Source of the DNA: Escherichia coli
Lineage (GTDB): Bacteria; Pseudomonadota; Gammaproteobacteria; Enterobacterales; Enterobacteriaceae
Direction: 5' to 3' (one strand)
Assembly: GCF_003334305.1 (NCBI RefSeq)
Contig: NZ_QOWS01000024.1
Length of the DNA stretch: 64,000 nt
A program made the translations under genes and the position numbers. This document shows positions 4,107-61,735 of the stretch, one piece after another; position 1 is the stretch's first letter, and every line of letters begins with the position of its first letter. The notes beneath the pieces are model-generated. The model ran no database searches. It saw nothing but the letters and a program-made list of their open reading frames with translations, and was not told the DNA's origin.

Positions 4107-5159
4107 ATGAATTATCAGAACGACGATTTACGCATCAAAGAAATCAAAGAGTTACTTCCTCCTGTCGCATTGCTGGAAAAATTCCCCGCTACTGAAAATG
4201 CCGCGAATACGGTTGCCCATGCCCGAAAAGCGATCCATAAGATCCTGAAAGGTAATGATGATCGCCTGTTGGTTGTGATTGGCCCATGCTCAATTCATGA
4301 TCCTGTCGCGGCAAAAGAGTATGCCACTCGCTTGCTGGCGCTGCGTGAAGAGCTGAAAGATGAGCTGGAAATCGTAATGCGCGTCTATTTTGAAAAGCCG
4401 CGTACCACGGTGGGCTGGAAAGGGCTGATTAACGATCCGCATATGGATAATAGCTTCCAGATCAACGACGGTCTGCGTATAGCCCGTAAATTGCTGCTTG
4501 ATATTAACGACAGCGGTCTGCCAGCGGCAGGTGAGTTTCTCGATATGATCACCCCACAATATCTCGCTGACCTGATGAGCTGGGGCGCAATTGGCGCACG
4601 TACCACCGAATCGCAGGTGCACCGCGAACTGGCATCAGGGCTTTCTTGTCCGGTCGGCTTCAAAAATGGCACCGACGGTACGATTAAAGTGGCTATCGAT
4701 GCCATTAATGCCGCCGGTGCGCCGCACTGCTTCCTGTCCGTAACGAAATGGGGGCATTCGGCGATTGTGAATACCAGCGGTAACGGCGATTGCCATATCA
4801 TTCTGCGCGGCGGTAAAGAGCCTAACTACAGCGCGAAGCACGTTGCTGAAGTGAAAGAAGGGCTGAACAAAGCAGGCCTGCCAGCACAGGTGATGATCGA
4901 TTTCAGCCATGCTAACTCGTCCAAACAATTCAACAAGCAGATGGATGTTTGTGCTGACGTTTGCCAGCAGATTGCCGGTGGCGAAAAGGCCATTATTGGC
5001 GTGATGGTGGAAAGCCATCTGGTGGAAGGCAATCAGAGCCTCGAGAGCGGGGAGCCGCTGGCCTACGGTAAGAGCATCACCGATGCCTGCATCGGCTGGG
5101 AAGATACCGATGCTCTGTTACGTCAACTGGCGAATGCAGTAAAAGCGCGTCGCGGGTAA
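4107..5159 (+). CDS. aroG: 3-deoxy-D-arabino-heptulosonate-7-phosphate synthase, Phe-sensitive
   Basis: ORF track 350 aa, MNYQNDDLRIKEIKELLPP; recognised as AroG. Confidence 0.95.
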   Translation: MNYQNDDLRIKEIKELLPPVALLEKFPATENAANTVAHARKAIHKILKGNDDRLLVVIGPCSIHDPVAAKEYATRLLALREELKDELEIVMRVYFEKPRTTVGWKGLINDPHMDNSFQINDGLRIARKLLLDINDSGLPAAGEFLDMITPQYLADLMSWGAIGARTTESQVHRELASGLSCPVGFKNGTDGTIKVAIDAINAAGAPHCFLSVTKWGHSAIVNTSGNGDCHIILRGGKEPNYSAKHVAEVKEGLNKAGLPAQVMIDFSHANSSKQFNKQMDVCADVCQQIAGGEKAIIGVMVESHLVEGNQSLESGEPLAYGKSITDACIGWEDTDALLRQLANAVKARRG

Positions 5160-5170
5160 GGTTTAATTGT

Positions 5171-5244
5171 CGGATGCGCCGTCAGAGTGGCGTATCCGAT
5201 GAATCACCACAGGCCTGATAAGTCGCGCAGCGTCGCATCAGGCA
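5171..5244. repeat. REP (repetitive extragenic palindromic) elements
   Basis: Imperfect palindromes CGGATGCGCC...GGCGTATCCG and GCCTGATAAG...CATCAGGC between convergent aroG and gpmA. Confidence 0.6.
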
Positions 5245-5264
5245 ATGTGCTCCATTGTTAGCAA

Positions 5265-5296
5265 CAAAAAAGCCGACTCACTTGCAGTCGGCTTTC
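5265..5296. terminator. bidirectional rho-independent terminator between aroG and gpmA
   Basis: Hairpin GCCGACT...AGTCGGC flanked by an A-tract upstream and T-tract downstream. Confidence 0.55.
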
Positions 5297-5316
5297 TCAT
5301 TTTAAACGAATGACGT

Positions 5317-6069
5317 TTACTTCGCTTTACCCTGGTTTGCAACCGCCGCTGCTTTCGCTGCGATCTCGTCAGCATTACCCAGATAATAGCGTTTCAGCGG
5401 TTTGAAATTCTCGTCGAACTCATACACCAGCGGCACGCCAGTCGGGATATTAAGCTCAAGAATCTCTTCTTCGCTCATGTTATCAAGATATTTCACCAGC
5501 GCACGTAAAGAGTTACCGTGTGCAGCGATGATCACGCGCTCACCGCTCTTCATACGCGGCAGAATAGTTTCATTCCAGTAAGGGATCACGCGGTCAATGG
5601 TCAGCGCCAGGCTTTCCGTCAGCGGCAGTTCTTTTTCGCTCAGTTTCGCGTAACGCGGATCGTGACCCGGATAACGCTCATCATCTTTAGTCAGTTCCGG
5701 CGGAGTCACTGCAAAACCACGACGCCACTGTTTCACCTGCTCGTCGCCATACTTTTCAGCAGTTTCCGCTTTGTTCAGACCCTGCAACGCACCGTAGTGA
5801 CGTTCGTTCAGTTTCCAGGATTTCTCAACGGGCAGCCATGCCTGATCCAGTTCGTCCAGCACATTCCACAGGGTATGGATAGCGCGTTTCAGCACAGAGG
5901 TGTAAGCAAAGTCAAAGCTGTAACCTTCCTCTTTCAGCAGCTTACCTGCTGCTTTTGCTTCGCTTACGCCTTTCTCAGACAGATCCACGTCGTACCAACC
6001 GGTGAAACGGTTTTCTTTGTTCCACTGACTTTCGCCATGACGAACCAGAACCAGCTTAGTTACAGCCAT
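5317..6069 (-). CDS. gpmA: 2,3-bisphosphoglycerate-dependent phosphoglycerate mutase
   Basis: ORF track 5317..6084; start trimmed to the internal ATG giving [17 protein letters not shown] (250 aa). Confidence 0.93.
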
Positions 6070-6095: not shown

Positions 6096-6116
6096 ATGAT
6101 AATAATTCTCATTATA
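6096..6116 (-). promoter_or_regulatory. candidate Fur box in gpmA promoter
   Basis: AATGATAATAATTCTCATTAT resembles the GATAATGATAATCATTATC Fur consensus, about 30 bp upstream of gpmA start. Confidence 0.4.
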
Positions 6117-53726: not shown

Positions 53727-54689
<963 letters not shown>

Positions 54690-54695
54690 TTCTTT

Positions 54696-54772
<77 letters not shown>

Positions 54773-54773
54773 A

Positions 54774-55915
<1,142 letters not shown>

Positions 55916-56029
55916 AAAAAGCCCGTCCAGTAACGGACGGGCAAACAAGGGTAATATAGGATCAATGAGGGTTAGAGCATATGCGTCTGTCGGCAAACAG
56001 ACAGGGAAATACTTGTGCTGGACGTAGCG

Positions 56030-56140
56030 TAAACGCCTGATCCGTCCAACGGTTCGGATTTTGTAGGCCTGATAAGACGCGGTAGCGTCGCATCAGGCAT
56101 CTGTTGCCGGATGCGGCGTAAACGCCTTATCCGTCCTACG
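56030..56140. repeat. BIME/REP array
   Basis: Three REP-like palindromes (GCCTGATAAGACGCGG..CATCAGGC; GCCGGATGCGGCGTAAACGCCTTATCCG). Confidence 0.7.
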
Positions 56141-56142
56141 AA

Positions 56143-56403
56143 TTACTTATAAATTACCGCAGTACCGCTTAATTTATTGTTGTTGGTGGCGGAAGTGATG
56201 CTGTATCCACTGGCACCGGCTGCCGCGGCTTTCTCAGCCAGTTTCGCTTCCAGGGCATCGAGGGTGGATGCGCCATCGGCAGAAACCACGCCGATTTTAT
56301 TCATGTTCTGTGCCTGGGATGCCGTTACCGGTTCCGCGGCAAACACGCCAAATGACAGAGTTGAAAGAGCCATAGCAGCAACAACAGTATTGATAGTTTT
56401 CAT
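56143..56403 (-). CDS. ybiJ: DUF1471 (YhcN-family) periplasmic protein
   Basis: ORF track 86 aa; signal peptide MKTINTVVAAMALSTLSFGVFA; paralog of mcbA. Confidence 0.88.
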   Translation of the reverse strand: MKTINTVVAAMALSTLSFGVFAAEPVTASQAQNMNKIGVVSADGASTLDALEAKLAEKAAAAGASGYSITSATNNNKLSGTAVIYK

Positions 56404-56667
56404 AATTAATCTCTCGCAGGTGATTTTTGTATAAGTGACGTTGTTTCGTCGATGTGATGAGTATCACGTTTTTTTACGAGAGATAAAATCGAAGAGAATT
56501 GACCGCCTTGTTCAAATAAATTGATTGATATCTAACCTACTGATAAACCATTTATTTGTTGTACTTATGAACTTGTTTTATACCGCGTGGCAGTCACAGC
56601 AGCGTTAAAGGCACGGAATGCCACGCAAAATACAAATTATACTCGCTATGCATCTCGCCAGTTGTAG

Positions 56668-56934
56668 TTAACGTAACTGGCTGTCTTTCGAACCTCTGCG
56701 ATTATATCCTGTATAAGCTGGTTTTTGTAAATCTTTCTCCTGCTGACAATGAATACATAAGCGCACGCCAGGAATGGCTTCCCGACGGGCCTGCGGGATG
56801 GGGGCACCGCACTCTTCACATTCATCCAGGCTTTCGCCGCGCGGAATTTCACCCCGAGCGCGGGAAATCGCATCTTCAATTGTACTGTTGATCTGTTCGT
56901 TGACGGCGTCATCGTTAGCCCAACCGGATGCCAT
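56668..56934 (-). CDS. ybiI: DksA/TraR-family C4-type zinc-finger protein
   Basis: ORF track 88 aa; CEECGAPIP...CIHCQ four-Cys zinc finger. Confidence 0.85.
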   Translation of the reverse strand: MASGWANDDAVNEQINSTIEDAISRARGEIPRGESLDECEECGAPIPQARREAIPGVRLCIHCQQEKDLQKPAYTGYNRRGSKDSQLR

Positions 56935-57007
56935 ATCGACCTCCCCATATCAATACTTGTACAGTTAAGTGTAGCTAATCCAGGGACGAACTCGGGCAGT
57001 TCAAGCA

Positions 57008-57685
57008 TCAGATCTCCGACCATTCCCGCAGCAGATTATGATAAAGATTAAGCAGCGACAGGATCTCTTCACTTTCGCCGTAGCGGCTTTTCAGCGACTG
57101 AATATTGTTGTCCAGTTCAAACAGCATGGCGCGCTTTTTATCATCGCGGATCATCGACTGGATCCACATAAATGATGCCACTCGTACGCCGCGGGTTACG
57201 GGTGTCACGCAATGCAGGCTGCTGGAGGGATACAACACGAGATCGCCTGCCGGGAGTTTTACCCGATGTTGTCCGAAGGTGTCATTAACGACCAGTTCGC
57301 CGCCGTCGTAGCTTTGTGGATCGCTTAAAAACAGCGTGGCAGAAAGGTCAGTACGCATCCAGCCGTTTTGTGGATGGCTGCGTACTGCGCCATCCACATG
57401 GAAACCATAGGTTTCATTGTTCTGATAGCGATTAAACAGCGGCGTGGAAAGGGTACGCGGCAAGGCCGCGGCAAAGAATAAAGCATGTTGGTTAACCGCG
57501 TTCAGCACCTCATTTTGCAGGGCGGCGTATAACGTGCTGCGGGTGTCGACCTGTTGATTGTTCTTAACTTGCGCACCTTGTGCGCCGGTGGTGACGCGTC
57601 CATCCACCCATTCGGCTTGTTCCAGTTGTTCGCGAAACCGGGCGACGTCCTGTGGCGATAACACGCCGGGAATGTGGTACATCAT
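57008..57685 (-). CDS. ybiX: PKHD-type Fe(II)/2-oxoglutarate-dependent hydroxylase
   Basis: ORF track 57008..57721; start trimmed to [17 protein letters not shown] (225 aa); directly downstream of fiu. Confidence 0.88.
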
Positions 57686-57726
57686 ACAAGTTCTCCAAAA
57701 AGTGGGGCCTGCGCCCCACATCTGAA

Positions 57727-60009
57727 TCAGAAATGCATATTGGCTGTGAGCAAGAAGGTTCTTGGCTCGCCCGGGTGATAACGGTAGCCGCTCTTGTTGA
57801 TTGAGGCGACGTAATCGGTATCAAACAGGTTGTAAACGTTTAGCTGGAAGTCGAGATTGCGATTAACCCGATACCCCAGTTTGGCATCGGCGACCCAGTA
57901 ACCTTCGGTAAACGCTGGCGTTCCCACCGCGCCGTCTGAACCTTTATGCATACTGCCGATATAGCGTGCGCCCGCGCCAACAGAGATATCATCGGTTGCC
58001 TGATACTGGCTCCATAAGGTGAAGGCGTGCTCCGGGGTATACGGCAGCGATGAGGAACCATCCTGGGCAACATCTTTGCCGTTTTTGATGGTTGCTTTTT
58101 GCTGGGTATAGCCGCCAATCACCTGCCACGCGGGAGTGATATTCCCGGCCACGGATATCTCATAGCCTTCGACACGTTTCTTACCGTATTGCGAGTAAGT
58201 TCCGTCATCATTTTGCTCAACTTCATTTTCGATATCAGTACGGAATAGCGCGGCGGTGAGCAACAGGCGTTTATCCAGAACCTGCCATTTGGTGCCAATC
58301 TCGCTGGTGTTGGCTTTTTGCGGTTTAAAATCGGTGCGGTTGGCACTGTTACCGCTGCCAGACTGCGCAAGGGCGAAGTTGTTGCCGCCCGGAGGCTGCT
58401 GGGAAACGGCATAGTTAATATAGACATTACCGTTTTCCGTCAGGTGATACAGCGCCCCGGCTTTCCAGTTCACCAGATTGCCCGACTTGGCGGTGTCGAC
58501 GGTGGTGACCGGAGAACCTTTTGCCACACCAGTTGGGCAGGTGATGGCACCGCGTCCGCTGCCGCCGCAGGCGGTGGCACTGTCATATTCAGTATGATAA
58601 TTATCCAGACGGATCCCGCCGTTCAGCTCAAAATCACGGGTGATTTGCAGCGTATCGAAGGCGTAAATTGCGAAGGTATCCGTCTGACCATTGGCGTTTG
58701 CGCCGTTGCGCGTCAGGCCGCCGGGATGAATGCTGCTGTCAGGATGATAAATATTTACCGCGGGTAACGTCACCGGATTAACGCCGTAGTTAGTCTGCGT
58801 TTCACGGGTAAATTCCACGCCGGTACTGACATCATGACCGATAGAACCGGTATAGAACGTCGAGGTCAGGTTGGTCTGGTTGGTGAGAATTTTATTACTC
58901 ACATCTTTGGTATTCGCCGTGCGTGACCAGGTCCAGCTATTCACATCGCTGGTGGGCTGAGTAATATTCGACGCCCCGCCCATAATCGCCGTCATCAGGT
59001 AATCCTGCTTTACGCGCGACCAACGGGTAGTATTGCGAATGGTGGTGTTATCGTTGATGTCGTGCTCAAAACGCATGGTGGCGGTGTCGGTGGTCGAATC
59101 GTCGTAATCGGAATCCGTGCCGTAAAAGTTATGAGTATCAACTTTTCCGGAATGATTCAGAGCCGCTGTTCCCGCAGATGGGGCAGAATAACCCGGCAAA
59201 CCGATGGTCGGAATGCCGCCGTCTGGCGTGTTGTGCTGGGTGACATGCAGATAATTAAGATACAAACGATTCGCTGTACCAAGGCCAAAAGCGATAGAAG
59301 GGGCGACGCCGTAACGCTCATTTTTGACTTTGTCGCGTCCGGCATCGTGCGTTTTTTCGCCCATCACATTCAGGCGCACCGCAGTGGTATCACCAATGAC
59401 CTGATTGACGTCCAGCGTGCCGCGGCGGAACCAGGCGCTGCCAATACTGGCGGAGGCGTCAATGCCGGAATCATTGCGCGGCTGCTTGCTGATCATATTG
59501 ATCGAGCCCGTCGGCGCGCTGCGCCCGTAGTCGGTGCCGGAAGGCCCTTTAATCACTTCGACCTGCTCAGTATTGAAGGTGTCGCGCGAGACGCTGCCGA
59601 TATCGCGAATGCCATCAATATAAATACTGTTAGAGGTATCAGCACCGCGCATATAAATGGCGTCGCCAGTGGTGGAGTTACCGTTCTCACCCGCAAAAAA
59701 CGCACCCACGCCGGGGACGTTTTTGAGCGCGTCGGTAAGGTTGGTTGCGCCCTGATCTTTAATCACTTGTTCAGAAATCACCGTCATCGTGCGGGTAGTA
59801 TCCGCTACCGGACGCGAGAATTTCGGATCGGCAGATTGTTGTGGCGCATAAAGCGAAGGCGTTGATGCTTCGACAACCAGCGTGTCATCCGCGTTAGTTT
59901 GCCCTTCGGCGGCGAGTGCCTGAGCCACAGGCGTGATGCCAATACAAAGACCGGCAAAGAACGTGAGCGAATGAAATTGTCTGGCAGGGAAATTGCGATT
60001 GTTTTCCAT
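57727..60009 (-). CDS. fiu: TonB-dependent outer-membrane catecholate siderophore receptor
   Basis: ORF track 760 aa; signal peptide, TonB-box region (DTLVVEAS), C-terminal aromatic residue (..ANMHF). Confidence 0.93.
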
Positions 60010-60112
60010 TTTGCAGGTGACTTTTTTTATATGTTGAAATTTTCACTGCCACGAGAAAGCCTCTCTGCGGATGCGATGCCACTGTTAATCTCGTGATAGT
60101 GTTCGTGCAAGT

Positions 60113-60137
60113 GATAATAATTTTGATAAGCATTATC
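60113..60137 (-). promoter_or_regulatory. Fur box in fiu promoter
   Basis: GATAATAATTTTGATAAGCATTATC (GATAAT/ATTATC repeats) about 110 bp upstream of fiu start. Confidence 0.55.
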
Positions 60138-60272
60138 ACTTGGCGCGATTTTCTATCACCCATTGCGCGAAAAAGAAATACATTTATTTACATTGCGTTC
60201 ATATTTGATGTTTTTTGATTACAAAACAGGCGAAAACTGCATCCAGAGGCGAATGCAGTTACGTTGGTGGGG

Positions 60273-60533
60273 TTATTTGTAGATGGTTGCAGTACCGAAC
60301 ATCTGGTCATTTCCGCCTGCGGAATTAATGACATAACCTTTCGCGCCTTGCTCGCGCGCTTTTTCTGCCAGTTTATCCTCCAGATCGCTTAGGTTTGATG
60401 CGCCAGTTGCCGAAACGGTACCGGCGGGCCGTAGCTGACCGCTGTCCAGGTTACTCATCGGTTGCGCGGCATAAGCCGTGAGAGAGATTCCGCTCAGGAC
60501 GGTGGCAATCAGTAGTGTGAGGCACTTTTTCAT
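60273..60533 (-). CDS. mcbA: DUF1471 (YhcN-family) periplasmic protein McbA
   Basis: ORF track 60273..60677; start trimmed to MKKCLTLLIATVLSGISLTAYA (signal peptide), 86 aa; C-terminus ..GTATIYK like YbiJ ..GTAVIYK. Confidence 0.85.
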   Translation of the reverse strand: MKKCLTLLIATVLSGISLTAYAAQPMSNLDSGQLRPAGTVSATGASNLSDLEDKLAEKAREQGAKGYVINSAGGNDQMFGTATIYK

Positions 60534-60808
60534 AATGACATCCTCATAAATACAACGGGTAGTGCCTGATAAGTGTAGGTCGCCTGGGCGATGAAAATGA
60601 CGCAAAAAATTGACAGAGATGTGCTTATTTTTTGAACGATATATTTTTACAAAATAAGACAAATCAATGACATGCATAATGCTGATTTTTATGATGAATT
60701 GCCATAAACCATAGCCATGTTAAGGTTTTGGGGAATGATAAACGCAGCCAGATATTTACCCTGTCGCGTTATGCGGGTATCTTACGCCGCTGCTTAAAGG
60801 AGAATGCT

Positions 60809-61735
60809 ATGTCCGCCCAGAAACCGGGGTTGCATCCGCGCAACCGTCATCACAGCCGCTACGATCTCGCCACGCTTTGTCAGGTCAATCCTGAACTCAG
60901 GCAATTCCTCACGCTTACACCCGCCGGGGAGCAAAGCGTAGACTTTGCCAATCCGCTGGCGGTGAAGGCGCTCAATAAGGCGTTGCTGGCCCATTTTTAC
61001 GCCGTAGCGAACTGGGAAATCCCCGACGGTTTTCTCTGCCCACCAGTACCGGGCCGGGCGGATTATATTCATCACCTTGCCGATTTACTGGCTGAAGCAA
61101 GCGGAACAATTCCAGCGAATGCCAGCATTCTGGATATCGGCGTTGGTGCGAACTGTATTTATCCGCTGATTGGCGTACATGAATATGGCTGGCGTTTTAC
61201 CGGTAGTGAAACCAGCAGCCAGGCGTTAAGCAGTGCGCAGGCGATTATCAGTGCTAATCCGGGGCTTAACCGCGCCATTCGTCTGCGTCGGCAAAAAGAG
61301 AGTGGGGCAATTTTTAACGGCATCATCCATAAAAACGAGCAATACGACGCGACCTTGTGTAACCCGCCATTCCACGATTCCGCCGCTGCAGCGCGGGCAG
61401 GTAGTGAGCGTAAACGCCGTAACCTGGGGCTGAACAAAGACGATGCACTGAACTTTGGTGGTCAGCAACAGGAGTTGTGGTGTGAAGGTGGTGAAGTCGC
61501 CTTTATCAAAAAGATGATTGAAGAGAGCAAAGGCTTCGCGAAGCAGGTGATGTGGTTTACCTCGCTGGTATCTCGTGGTGAAAACTTACCGCCGTTGTAT
61601 CGTGCTCTGACCGACGTGGGCGCGGTGAAGGTGGTAAAAAAAGAGATGGCCCAGGGGCAAAAGCAGAGTCGCTTTATTGCCTGGACCTTTATGAACGACG
61701 AGCAGCGCCGCCGTTTTGTTAATCGCCAACGTTAA
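60809..61735 (+). CDS. rlmF: 23S rRNA m6A1618 methyltransferase
   Basis: ORF track 60728..61735 (TTG); start trimmed to [20 protein letters not shown] (308 aa); NPPF motif present. Confidence 0.9.

Follow-up and report, generated by a model that had tools for sequence, protein, structure and literature searches.

Two head-to-tail transcription units probably make up the fiu-ybiX-ybiI locus of Escherichia coli

We analysed the fiu-ybiX-ybiI locus in a stretch of 64,000 nucleotides (nt) of Escherichia coli DNA (assembly GCF_003334305.1, contig NZ_QOWS01000024.1), hereafter called the window. The locus probably comprises two head-to-tail units: a Fur-repressed fiu-ybiX pair with a hairpin between its two genes, and ybiI, which is expressed independently from a sigma-S promoter and additionally by read-through from the pair. 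It is the known locus of E. coli K-12 and in no way different from it, and both the pairing of fiu with ybiX and the control of the pair by Fur have been published. Nothing sets the 4.4-kb segment that holds it (56300..60700) apart from ordinary chromosomal DNA of the species: several E. coli chromosomes match it with 100% identity, and 5417 of 5426 complete genomes cover 80% or more of its length. The RefSeq gene names across the segment are mcbA, fiu, ybiX, ybiI and ybiJ, all on the minus strand.

The names that an earlier note on this DNA had given to the three central genes agreed with RefSeq, PDB, Pfam and NCBIfam, and every feature that it had described stood where it had been placed. 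The gene fiu (57727..60009, minus strand), an open reading frame also annotated in RefSeq, encodes a transporter of monomeric catecholates that sits in the outer membrane, is TonB-dependent and has 760 amino acids; it matched PDB entries 6BPM, 6BPN and 6BPO (E = 0), the first of which is entitled "Catecholate siderophore receptor Fiu". The ATG of ybiX (57008..57685, minus strand) lies exactly 41 nt past the fiu stop codon, as had been stated, and its ATGATG start is conserved. Its product of 225 amino acids is a cytoplasmic PKHD-type Fe(II)/2-oxoglutarate (2OG) oxygenase, orthologous to PiuC and CciO. The assignment to this enzyme class, likewise made in the earlier note, was confirmed by the Pfam domains 2OG-FeII_Oxy_3 and PKHD_C and by the equivalog family NF003972 of NCBIfam (520 bits, cut-off 399); the structure matches were PDB 3DKQ (2e-76) and PiuC (9GHL and 9QN0-4, 2e-69). 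The third gene, ybiI (56668..56934, minus strand), encodes a TraR-like C4 zinc-finger protein of 88 amino acids belonging to family NF008243. Its description as a small four-cysteine protein of the DksA/TraR type was upheld by a match to zf-dskA_traR (PF01258, 5e-12), with zinc-ribbon cysteines Cys39, Cys42, Cys60 and Cys63, and 87 of its 88 residues were identical to those of PDB 2KGO, a nuclear magnetic resonance structure entitled "Uncharacterized protein ybiI". The gap between ybiX and ybiI measures 73 nt, and the spacer between mcbA and fiu 263 nt.

The same note had placed ybiI in an iron module with fiu and ybiX and had named a separate, iron-independent promoter of ybiI as the observation that would speak against this. 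Such a promoter has been published, and ybiI did not hold up as part of the module. Peano et al. (2015) reported a sigma-S peak at ybiI by chromatin immunoprecipitation (ChIP) sequencing and dependence on rpoS by quantitative reverse-transcription PCR, and at the ybiI promoter the holoenzyme with sigma-S formed open complexes much better than that with sigma-70; gel shift and permanganate footprinting were among the methods (PMC4447067). A peak of the RpoS holoenzyme was also found in the ybiX-ybiI spacer by genomic systematic evolution of ligands by exponential enrichment (SELEX; PMC5493296). In the window, a candidate sigma-S -10 region of ybiI lies at 56965..56975 on the minus strand (GCTACACTTAA), with the hexamer TACACT at 56968..56973 and a C directly upstream at 56974. 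We took as sigma-S-type promoters those with a -10 of the form C(-13)-TAYACT-TAA and a weak -35, and GCTACACTTAA fits this form. The published sigma-S promoter thus probably corresponds, judging from the sequence, to the hexamer at 56968..56973. Most of the fetched genera with ybiI keep the -10 block in the form CTAYAMT, and an identical block, GCTACACTTAAC, stands upstream of ybiI in Salmonella, where the gene upstream is rlmF instead of ybiX. The block therefore travels with ybiI even where ybiX is missing. As a separate observation, an insertion of about 120 nt rich in GC separates the -10 block from the ybiI start codon in Raoultella terrigena (L030:5700-5870) and Enterobacter sp. 10-1 (L032); a long structured ybiI leader arising from such an insertion was seen in these two genomes only.

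The distribution of the genes points the same way. A scan for YbiX with one genome per species yielded 80 related loci, and among these ybiI was found downstream of ybiX only in Escherichia, Citrobacter, Leclercia, Silvania, Pseudocitrobacter, Klebsiella and Raoultella. The pair occurred without ybiI in seven loci of the Kluyvera group (six Kluyvera and one other Enterobacteriaceae isolate), in ten loci of Pantoea, Rouxiella, Serratia and Tatumella, and in all 34 of the loci from outside the Enterobacterales. Conversely, ybiI occurred without the pair in Salmonella enterica (gene order rlmF, ybiI, ybiJ) and Enterobacter kobei (mcbA, ybiI, ybiJ), with YbiI proteins 80-82% identical, and no Fur-like site of at least 12/19 was found upstream of ybiI in Salmonella and Enterobacter. 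The locus of Citrobacter sp. Awk 4 (L043, about 4465-6023) shows the genes parting company within one genome: fiu is cut to a remnant of 42 amino acids beside mcbA, ybiX is missing its 5' part and is interrupted by a nonsense codon (TAG in place of TAC), and ybiI and ybiJ are intact. This suggests that fiu and ybiX were lost together and independently of ybiI. We conclude that ybiI is grouped with fiu-ybiX by position and not by function, and that it stands outside the module.

Published expression data for ybiI include both stress and iron responses. Its expression rises at entry into stationary phase in E. coli O157:H7, and in Salmonella, where the pair is missing, it shows NaCl-specific induction together with dps and proX. 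The E. coli gene is induced in serum and belongs to the Fur-1 iModulon along with fiu and ybiX (PMC10164565). Our terminator scan found no terminator with a U-tract after ybiX in E. coli, and the iron response of ybiI in this species is most simply, and in our judgement best, explained by transcripts that start at the fiu promoter and read through.

Next, we examined the control region of fiu. The Fur-box match that the earlier note had seen there proved to be real. A Fur box array lies upstream of fiu at 60107..60143 on the minus strand, made of overlapping 19-mers shifted by hexamers, with a core at 60113..60137 (GATAATGCTTATCAAAATTATTATC). A consensus scan allowing up to three mismatches misses this site, which has four, and was replaced by a full scoring scan and a resampling test. 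The best 19-mer (60119..60137) agrees with the Fur consensus GATAATGATAATCATTATC at 15 of 19 positions and is the second-best locus of the window. Overlapping matches shifted by 6 nt (14/19 and 13/19) extend over the whole array, the usual signature of a hexamer array. A match of at least 15/19 would arise by chance in the 263-nt mcbA-fiu spacer with P = 0.002 (5000 composition-matched resamplings). Overlapping matches of at least 13/19 numbered six against 0.14 expected, and six were reached in none of 2000 resamplings. Among Enterobacterales loci with a full-length fiu, the best upstream site scored 14-17/19 against a background maximum of 12-14, and it lay 120-137 nt before the ATG in most of them and at 165-200 nt or, in Tatumella, 49-61 nt in the rest. 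The single locus of the window scoring above that of fiu lies at 6098..6116 (16/19, TATAATGAGAATTATTATC), between galM and gpmA and 26-44 nt before the start of gpmA, a known Fur-regulated gene.

A sigma-70 promoter of fiu is predicted at 60132..60159 on the minus strand (9/12 in the consensus scan), with the -35 hexamer GTGATA at 60154..60159, a 16-nt spacer and the -10 hexamer GATAAT at 60132..60137. Both hexamers were conserved in the cross-genus alignment, and the predicted -10 is also the first hexamer of the Fur box, so operator and promoter would overlap. Transcription would start near 60125 and leave a 5' untranslated region of about 115 nt. Upstream of the -35 lies an AT-rich block, AATGTAAATAAATGTATTTCTTTTT (60170..60194, minus strand), in which TGTA occurs twice at a distance of 10 nt. 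It is a candidate site for ArcA or another regulator, and its conservation, which reaches from Escherichia to Serratia, exceeded that of the surrounding sequence. Binding of ArcA to the fiu promoter region has been reported (PMC4676285), and the block may be that site. The same source lists fiu-ybiX as a Fur target operon and describes a Fur-repressed fiu promoter-lacZ fusion (PMC4676285). In a further study, fiu was placed in the core Fur regulon on the basis of ChIP-exo and a fur deletion (PMC10164565).

The pairing of receptor and oxygenase, which the earlier note had pointed out, was borne out well beyond E. coli. In 79 of the 80 loci, ybiX was preceded on its own strand by a gene for a TonB-dependent receptor, which in nearly all of these ended just before the oxygenase gene. 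Beta-, alpha- and epsilon-proteobacteria also have the pair, with receptors only 22-40% identical to Fiu. Two papers of 2025 in the Journal of Bacteriology describe cciT-cciO of Caulobacter as a co-conserved, Fur-regulated pair (PMC12004947, PMC12004943), and CciO is strictly required for the function of CciT (PMC12004947). For E. coli, a strongly raised minimal inhibitory concentration (MIC) of cefiderocol was reported in a double mutant of cirA and ybiX (bioRxiv 10.1101/2025.02.14.638246). Receptor and oxygenase are thus functionally paired, the published genetics showing that the oxygenase is needed for receptor function. Residues H96, D98, H158 and R168 of YbiX were invariant across 79 orthologs, which argues that the enzyme is catalytically intact; following the general pattern of the fold, R168 would be the 2OG-binding arginine. 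No signal peptide was evident on YbiX.

The two genes of the pair are separated by an intercistronic hairpin (57697..57719, minus strand) that resembles a terminator: a stem-loop, GUGGGGC-GCAG-GCCCCAC (57702..57719), is followed by UUUUU (57697..57701). It begins 7 nt past the fiu stop codon, and its U-tract abuts the ybiX Shine-Dalgarno sequence GGAGA (57692..57696). The terminator scan described it as a GC stem of 7 base pairs with a tetraloop and UUUUU. The RNA of this region folded with -23.4 kcal/mol (z = -4.15), and none of 200 shuffled sequences folded as well. A GC-rich hairpin was found in every Enterobacterales locus with an intact fiu-ybiX junction. For the pair counts, the spacers were folded one at a time and their stems then matched up by position; a MAFFT alignment of the spacer placed the Klebsiella and Tatumella stems out of register and was not used for counting. 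Spacers shorter than 100 nt contained 27 distinct, fully paired hairpins, with compensatory changes and several pair types at all seven stem positions, and the Tatumella stems were unrelated in sequence to the others. A U-tract of four to seven U follows the stem in E. coli (Escherichia), Kluyvera, Klebsiella and some Tatumella loci. Several distant proteobacteria have a strong stem with a run of U in the gap between receptor and oxygenase genes; others have gaps of 6-25 nt without structure. The hairpin likely yields more receptor than enzyme from the one promoter, and its conserved function may be partial termination in some genera and protection of the 3' end in others.

Elements resembling repetitive extragenic palindromic (REP) sequences were also encountered at this junction. 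In Escherichia sp. MOD1-EC7003 (L003:4776-4990) and E. whittamii (L004:4786-5000), an element of about 171 nt resembling REP sequences or bacterial interspersed mosaic elements (BIME) lies in the hairpin loop and stretches the fiu-ybiX spacer from 41 to 212 nt, with the outer stem and U-tract kept. In three Pseudocitrobacter loci (L022, L024 and L026), a REP-like palindrome replaces the hairpin.

We propose the following course of events. When iron is present, Fur-Fe(II) would occupy the hexamer array over the fiu -10 and block RNA polymerase. When iron is absent, transcription would proceed from near 60125 through fiu, and at the hairpin (followed by UUUUU in E. coli) some transcripts would be terminated or have their 3' ends protected. 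The outer-membrane receptor would become abundant relative to the cytoplasmic enzyme, and the remaining transcripts would run into ybiX. YbiX would then serve as an intact Fe(II)/2-oxoglutarate oxygenase required for productive Fiu-dependent uptake, and its target would more likely be a cell component that belongs to the transport pathway than imported cargo to be broken down. Beyond it, ybiI, which has its own sigma-S-type promoter in the ybiX-ybiI spacer, would behave as an independent general-stress gene, and Fur-controlled read-through past ybiX would add an iron response onto the sigma-S response.

Another account would be one Fur-controlled operon whose three products act jointly, either to take up catecholate iron or to mount a dedicated response to iron stress. 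The three genes lie on one strand with gaps of 41 and 73 nt, the ybiX-ybiI spacer in E. coli has no U-tract terminator, all three genes belong to the Fur-1 iModulon (PMC10164565), ybiI responds to serum, and the literature sometimes terms the three an operon (PMC12004943, PMC2613031). We nevertheless consider this account quite unlikely. It has to contend with the sigma-S promoter of ybiI, with the retention of ybiI in the absence of both fiu-ybiX and a Fur box (Salmonella and Enterobacter), and with the pair lacking ybiI in the Kluyvera group, in the Pantoea, Rouxiella, Serratia and Tatumella loci and everywhere outside the Enterobacterales. Further points against it are the intact ybiI beside decayed fiu and ybiX in Citrobacter sp. 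Awk 4, the lytic phages that carry the nearest YbiI relatives found outside the Enterobacteriaceae, and the unrelated gene neighbourhoods of distant YbiI homologs (both described below). Direct iron control of ybiI could also come from a second Fur operator in the 3' end of ybiX (57034..57052, 14/19), which is among only six loci of at least 14/19 in the window and is located some 100 nt ahead of the ybiI ATG. However, it lies 60-90 nt upstream of the ybiI -10 and does not cover it; in other genera the match is erased by synonymous changes (CTCAACCTCTACCATAACCTG) with the peptide LLNLYHNLL retained; and a match of at least 12/19 is missing upstream of ybiI in Salmonella and Enterobacter. Because its synonymous positions vary and loci with ybiI alone lack it, this site was rejected as a chance match, and direct control through it is very improbable. 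Two units, with the iron response reaching ybiI by read-through, thus remain the preferred reading.

The preferred reading has points weighing against it as well. The sigma-70 consensus scan reported no ybiI promoter, which is consistent with a sigma-S promoter whose -35 is poor. The hairpin U-tract is weak or absent in Leclercia, Rouxiella and some Citrobacter and Tatumella loci, with the stem always kept; a terminator role therefore cannot be general in those genera, and stabilisation of the mRNA is an alternative. The E. coli MIC data for ybiX come from one preprint, without the level of Fiu protein, and both the termination of transcripts at the hairpin and the read-through into ybiI are steps that we infer. 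It is a possibility to be taken seriously, though not the one we favour, that the hairpin does not terminate at all and only stabilises the mRNA or blocks its decay, or that it is a remnant to which REP elements are drawn. The stems kept without a U-tract agree with this, and so do the REP/BIME-like elements that interrupt the hairpin (Escherichia sp., E. whittamii) or replace it (Pseudocitrobacter); the four to seven U after the stem in E. coli, Kluyvera, Klebsiella and some Tatumella loci, and the stem with a run of U in the same gap of distant proteobacteria, do not. As for the enzyme, YbiX might process cargo, hydroxylating or degrading in the cytoplasm a catecholate imported by Fiu, for iron release or detoxification of the ligand. 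Such a role has been proposed for PiuC and YbiX (PMC12004947, PMC12004943) and agrees with the conserved, co-regulated pairing; moreover, a ybiX nonsense mutation that confers resistance to a catechol-conjugated antisense oligomer, which must reach the cytoplasm, is cited in PMC12004943. We regard cargo processing, which the earlier note had suggested in the form of modification of an imported siderophore, as doubtful. Fiu delivers to the periplasm only, there is no inner-membrane transporter at the locus, and no activity of the enzyme on any siderophore has been reported. Cefiderocol, as a beta-lactam, has its target in the periplasm. With the drug acting there and YbiX bearing no evident signal peptide, pure cargo processing explains the raised MIC upon ybiX loss poorly (bioRxiv 10.1101/2025.02.14.638246). 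In Caulobacter, the growth benefit of CciT is fully gone without CciO, even though CciT transports neither cefiderocol nor an obvious catechol (PMC12004947). We favour a role of YbiX in the transport pathway itself.

The YbiI protein was then compared with its relatives. Its structure matches were TraR (5W1S and 6N57, E of about 1e-10) and, more weakly, DksA (1TJL, E = 0.047). It scored 159.9 bits against its own equivalog family NF008243 (cut-off 96) and 59.7 against the TraR subfamily TIGR02419, exactly at the cut-off of 59.7; it fell far below the cut-offs of the TraR equivalog NF010268 (45.5 against 108) and of the DksA equivalog (20 bits against 115). The core CxxCGxPIPxARRxxxPGVxLCxxCQ is conserved, and R50 and R51 in PIPQARRE align with R48 and R49 in PIPEARRK of TraR, whose roles concern the rim helices and beta' Si3, respectively (PMC9239242). 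Overexpressed YbiI rescues the auxotrophy of a dksA mutant and not that of a relA spoT mutant, according to a statement marked "data not shown" (Blankschien et al., PMC2613031). From these comparisons, YbiI probably works like TraR without being its ortholog, and by analogy it may bind RNA polymerase. Two points weigh against such an activity. The dksA rescue required high expression and was never published as data. In addition, YbiI lacks an in-register DxxDxA motif, on which TraR and lambda Orf73 depend for their activity: with the alignment anchored at V11-x-E13-Q14, D3, D6 and A8 of TraR face S3, A6 and D8. The family logo reads G4-W5-A6-x-D8-G9-A10-V11, that is, GWxxDxAV in place of DxxDxA, and a shift of two residues would be needed for D8-x-A10 of YbiI to mimic D6-x-A8, with W5 then replacing D3. 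To our knowledge, YbiI is the only chromosomal TraR-like protein of E. coli.

A search among 1.84 billion cluster representatives returned 288 YbiI relatives at E <= 1e-10. Logos of their termini were near-invariant, with M-A-x-G-W-A-x-D-G-A-V-Q-[DE]-Q-I-D at the N-terminus and [YIF]-N-R-R-G-S-K-D-S-Q-L-[RK] at the C-terminus. Among the collections searched, the closest full-length relatives outside the Enterobacteriaceae were proteins of lytic phages, 53-56% identical, from three unrelated groups: Privateervirus, Vequintavirinae and T4-like Slopekvirus. The phage homologs end in the identical tail, YNRRGSKDSQLR, and since the tail codons share only 20-25 of 36 nucleotides, selection acts on the peptide. 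A bolder reading, less likely than not, is that YbiI represents a large branch of the TraR/DksA proteins, namely NF008243, which is spread over proteobacterial chromosomes and unrelated lytic phages, is defined by the two end motifs and uses these ends to contact RNA polymerase, or another conserved host machine, in a way that differs from that of TraR. If so, E. coli would possess a sigma-S-induced, ppGpp-independent (ppGpp, guanosine tetraphosphate) modulator of transcription that also responds to iron starvation through read-through, and phages would have taken this protein over.

The neighbourhoods of four distant YbiI homologs revealed no recurring partner and no clue to function. The neighbours were an amidohydrolase and CobW in one case, an amidase in two, and QRPTase and YCII in one; one neighbourhood was too short to judge. 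In a metagenome contig (L090:562-4931), a YbiI homolog of 64% identity lies between an Ldh_2 gene, of the same family as hcxB/ybiC, a near neighbour of ybiI in E. coli, and an amidohydrolase gene together with a CobW/COG0523 gene; this arrangement recalls Zur-regulated zinc-sparing clusters with DksA paralogs. In Privateervirus (L082:1144-3901 and L083:2501-4806), the homolog lies in a block resembling early genes, with a polynucleotide kinase, a MazG-like pyrophosphatase, a ribose-phosphate pyrophosphokinase and a nicotinamide phosphoribosyltransferase. The label "holin" carried by one of the Privateervirus homologs in GenBank is a mis-annotation.

Two paralogs of the DUF1471 (YdgH/BhsA-like) family, ybiJ (56143..56403) and mcbA (60273..60533), bracket fiu-ybiX-ybiI. 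In Salmonella, mcbA is missing along with fiu-ybiX; in Enterobacter, it is retained. Between the two paralogs, the fiu-ybiX-ybiI block may have been acquired or may have dropped out. An Rfam scan of 54000..62500 by E-value detected no known small RNA (sRNA) or riboswitch in the 5' untranslated region of fiu or in the spacers. The only match of that scan lay outside the locus: naRNA4 (CssrE, RF02564; 78 bits, 56066..56136), a REP-derived element located between ybiE and ybiJ, just downstream of ybiJ.

The locus is a textbook one, and its confirmation adds little. What remains of interest is the chemistry of YbiX and the family of YbiI. The former touches on how a cytoplasmic 2OG oxygenase enables an outer-membrane catecholate transporter, which bears on resistance to cefiderocol and other siderophore-drug conjugates, and the latter on what YbiI does in E. 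coli. With ybiI outside the module, YbiX is best studied with Fiu alone. YbiI is best studied as a sigma-S stress gene product, with attention to two parts of the protein: the unusual tip at its N-terminus and the nearly invariant tail NRRGSKDSQL(R/K) at its C-terminus.

Among known systems, cciT-cciO of Caulobacter crescentus and piuA-piuC of Pseudomonas and Acinetobacter share with fiu-ybiX the two-gene architecture and control by Fur, and a genetic requirement of the oxygenase for receptor-dependent phenotypes has been described in Caulobacter (PMC12004947) and in E. coli (bioRxiv 10.1101/2025.02.14.638246). They differ in that CciT does not import cefiderocol (PMC12004947), that the Caulobacter operon includes an sRNA gene (PMC12004943), and that pairs of the CciT/PiuA type have no ybiI-like gene downstream in the related loci fetched. 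For YbiI, the closest models are TraR of the F plasmid and lambda Orf73, regulators that act in RNA polymerase's secondary channel and mimic DksA plus ppGpp. YbiI resembles TraR in its similar size and in its build, with an N-terminal segment that aligns with the N-terminal helix of TraR followed by a C4 zinc ribbon. Unlike TraR, it begins with M-A-x-G-W-A-x-D-G-A-V-Q in place of an in-register DxxDxA, ends in a 12-residue tail that TraR does not have, and is chromosomal and driven by sigma-S, whereas TraR is encoded in a transfer operon. With DksA it shares the C4 zinc-finger domain PF01258, but it is half the size and has no two-helix coiled coil.

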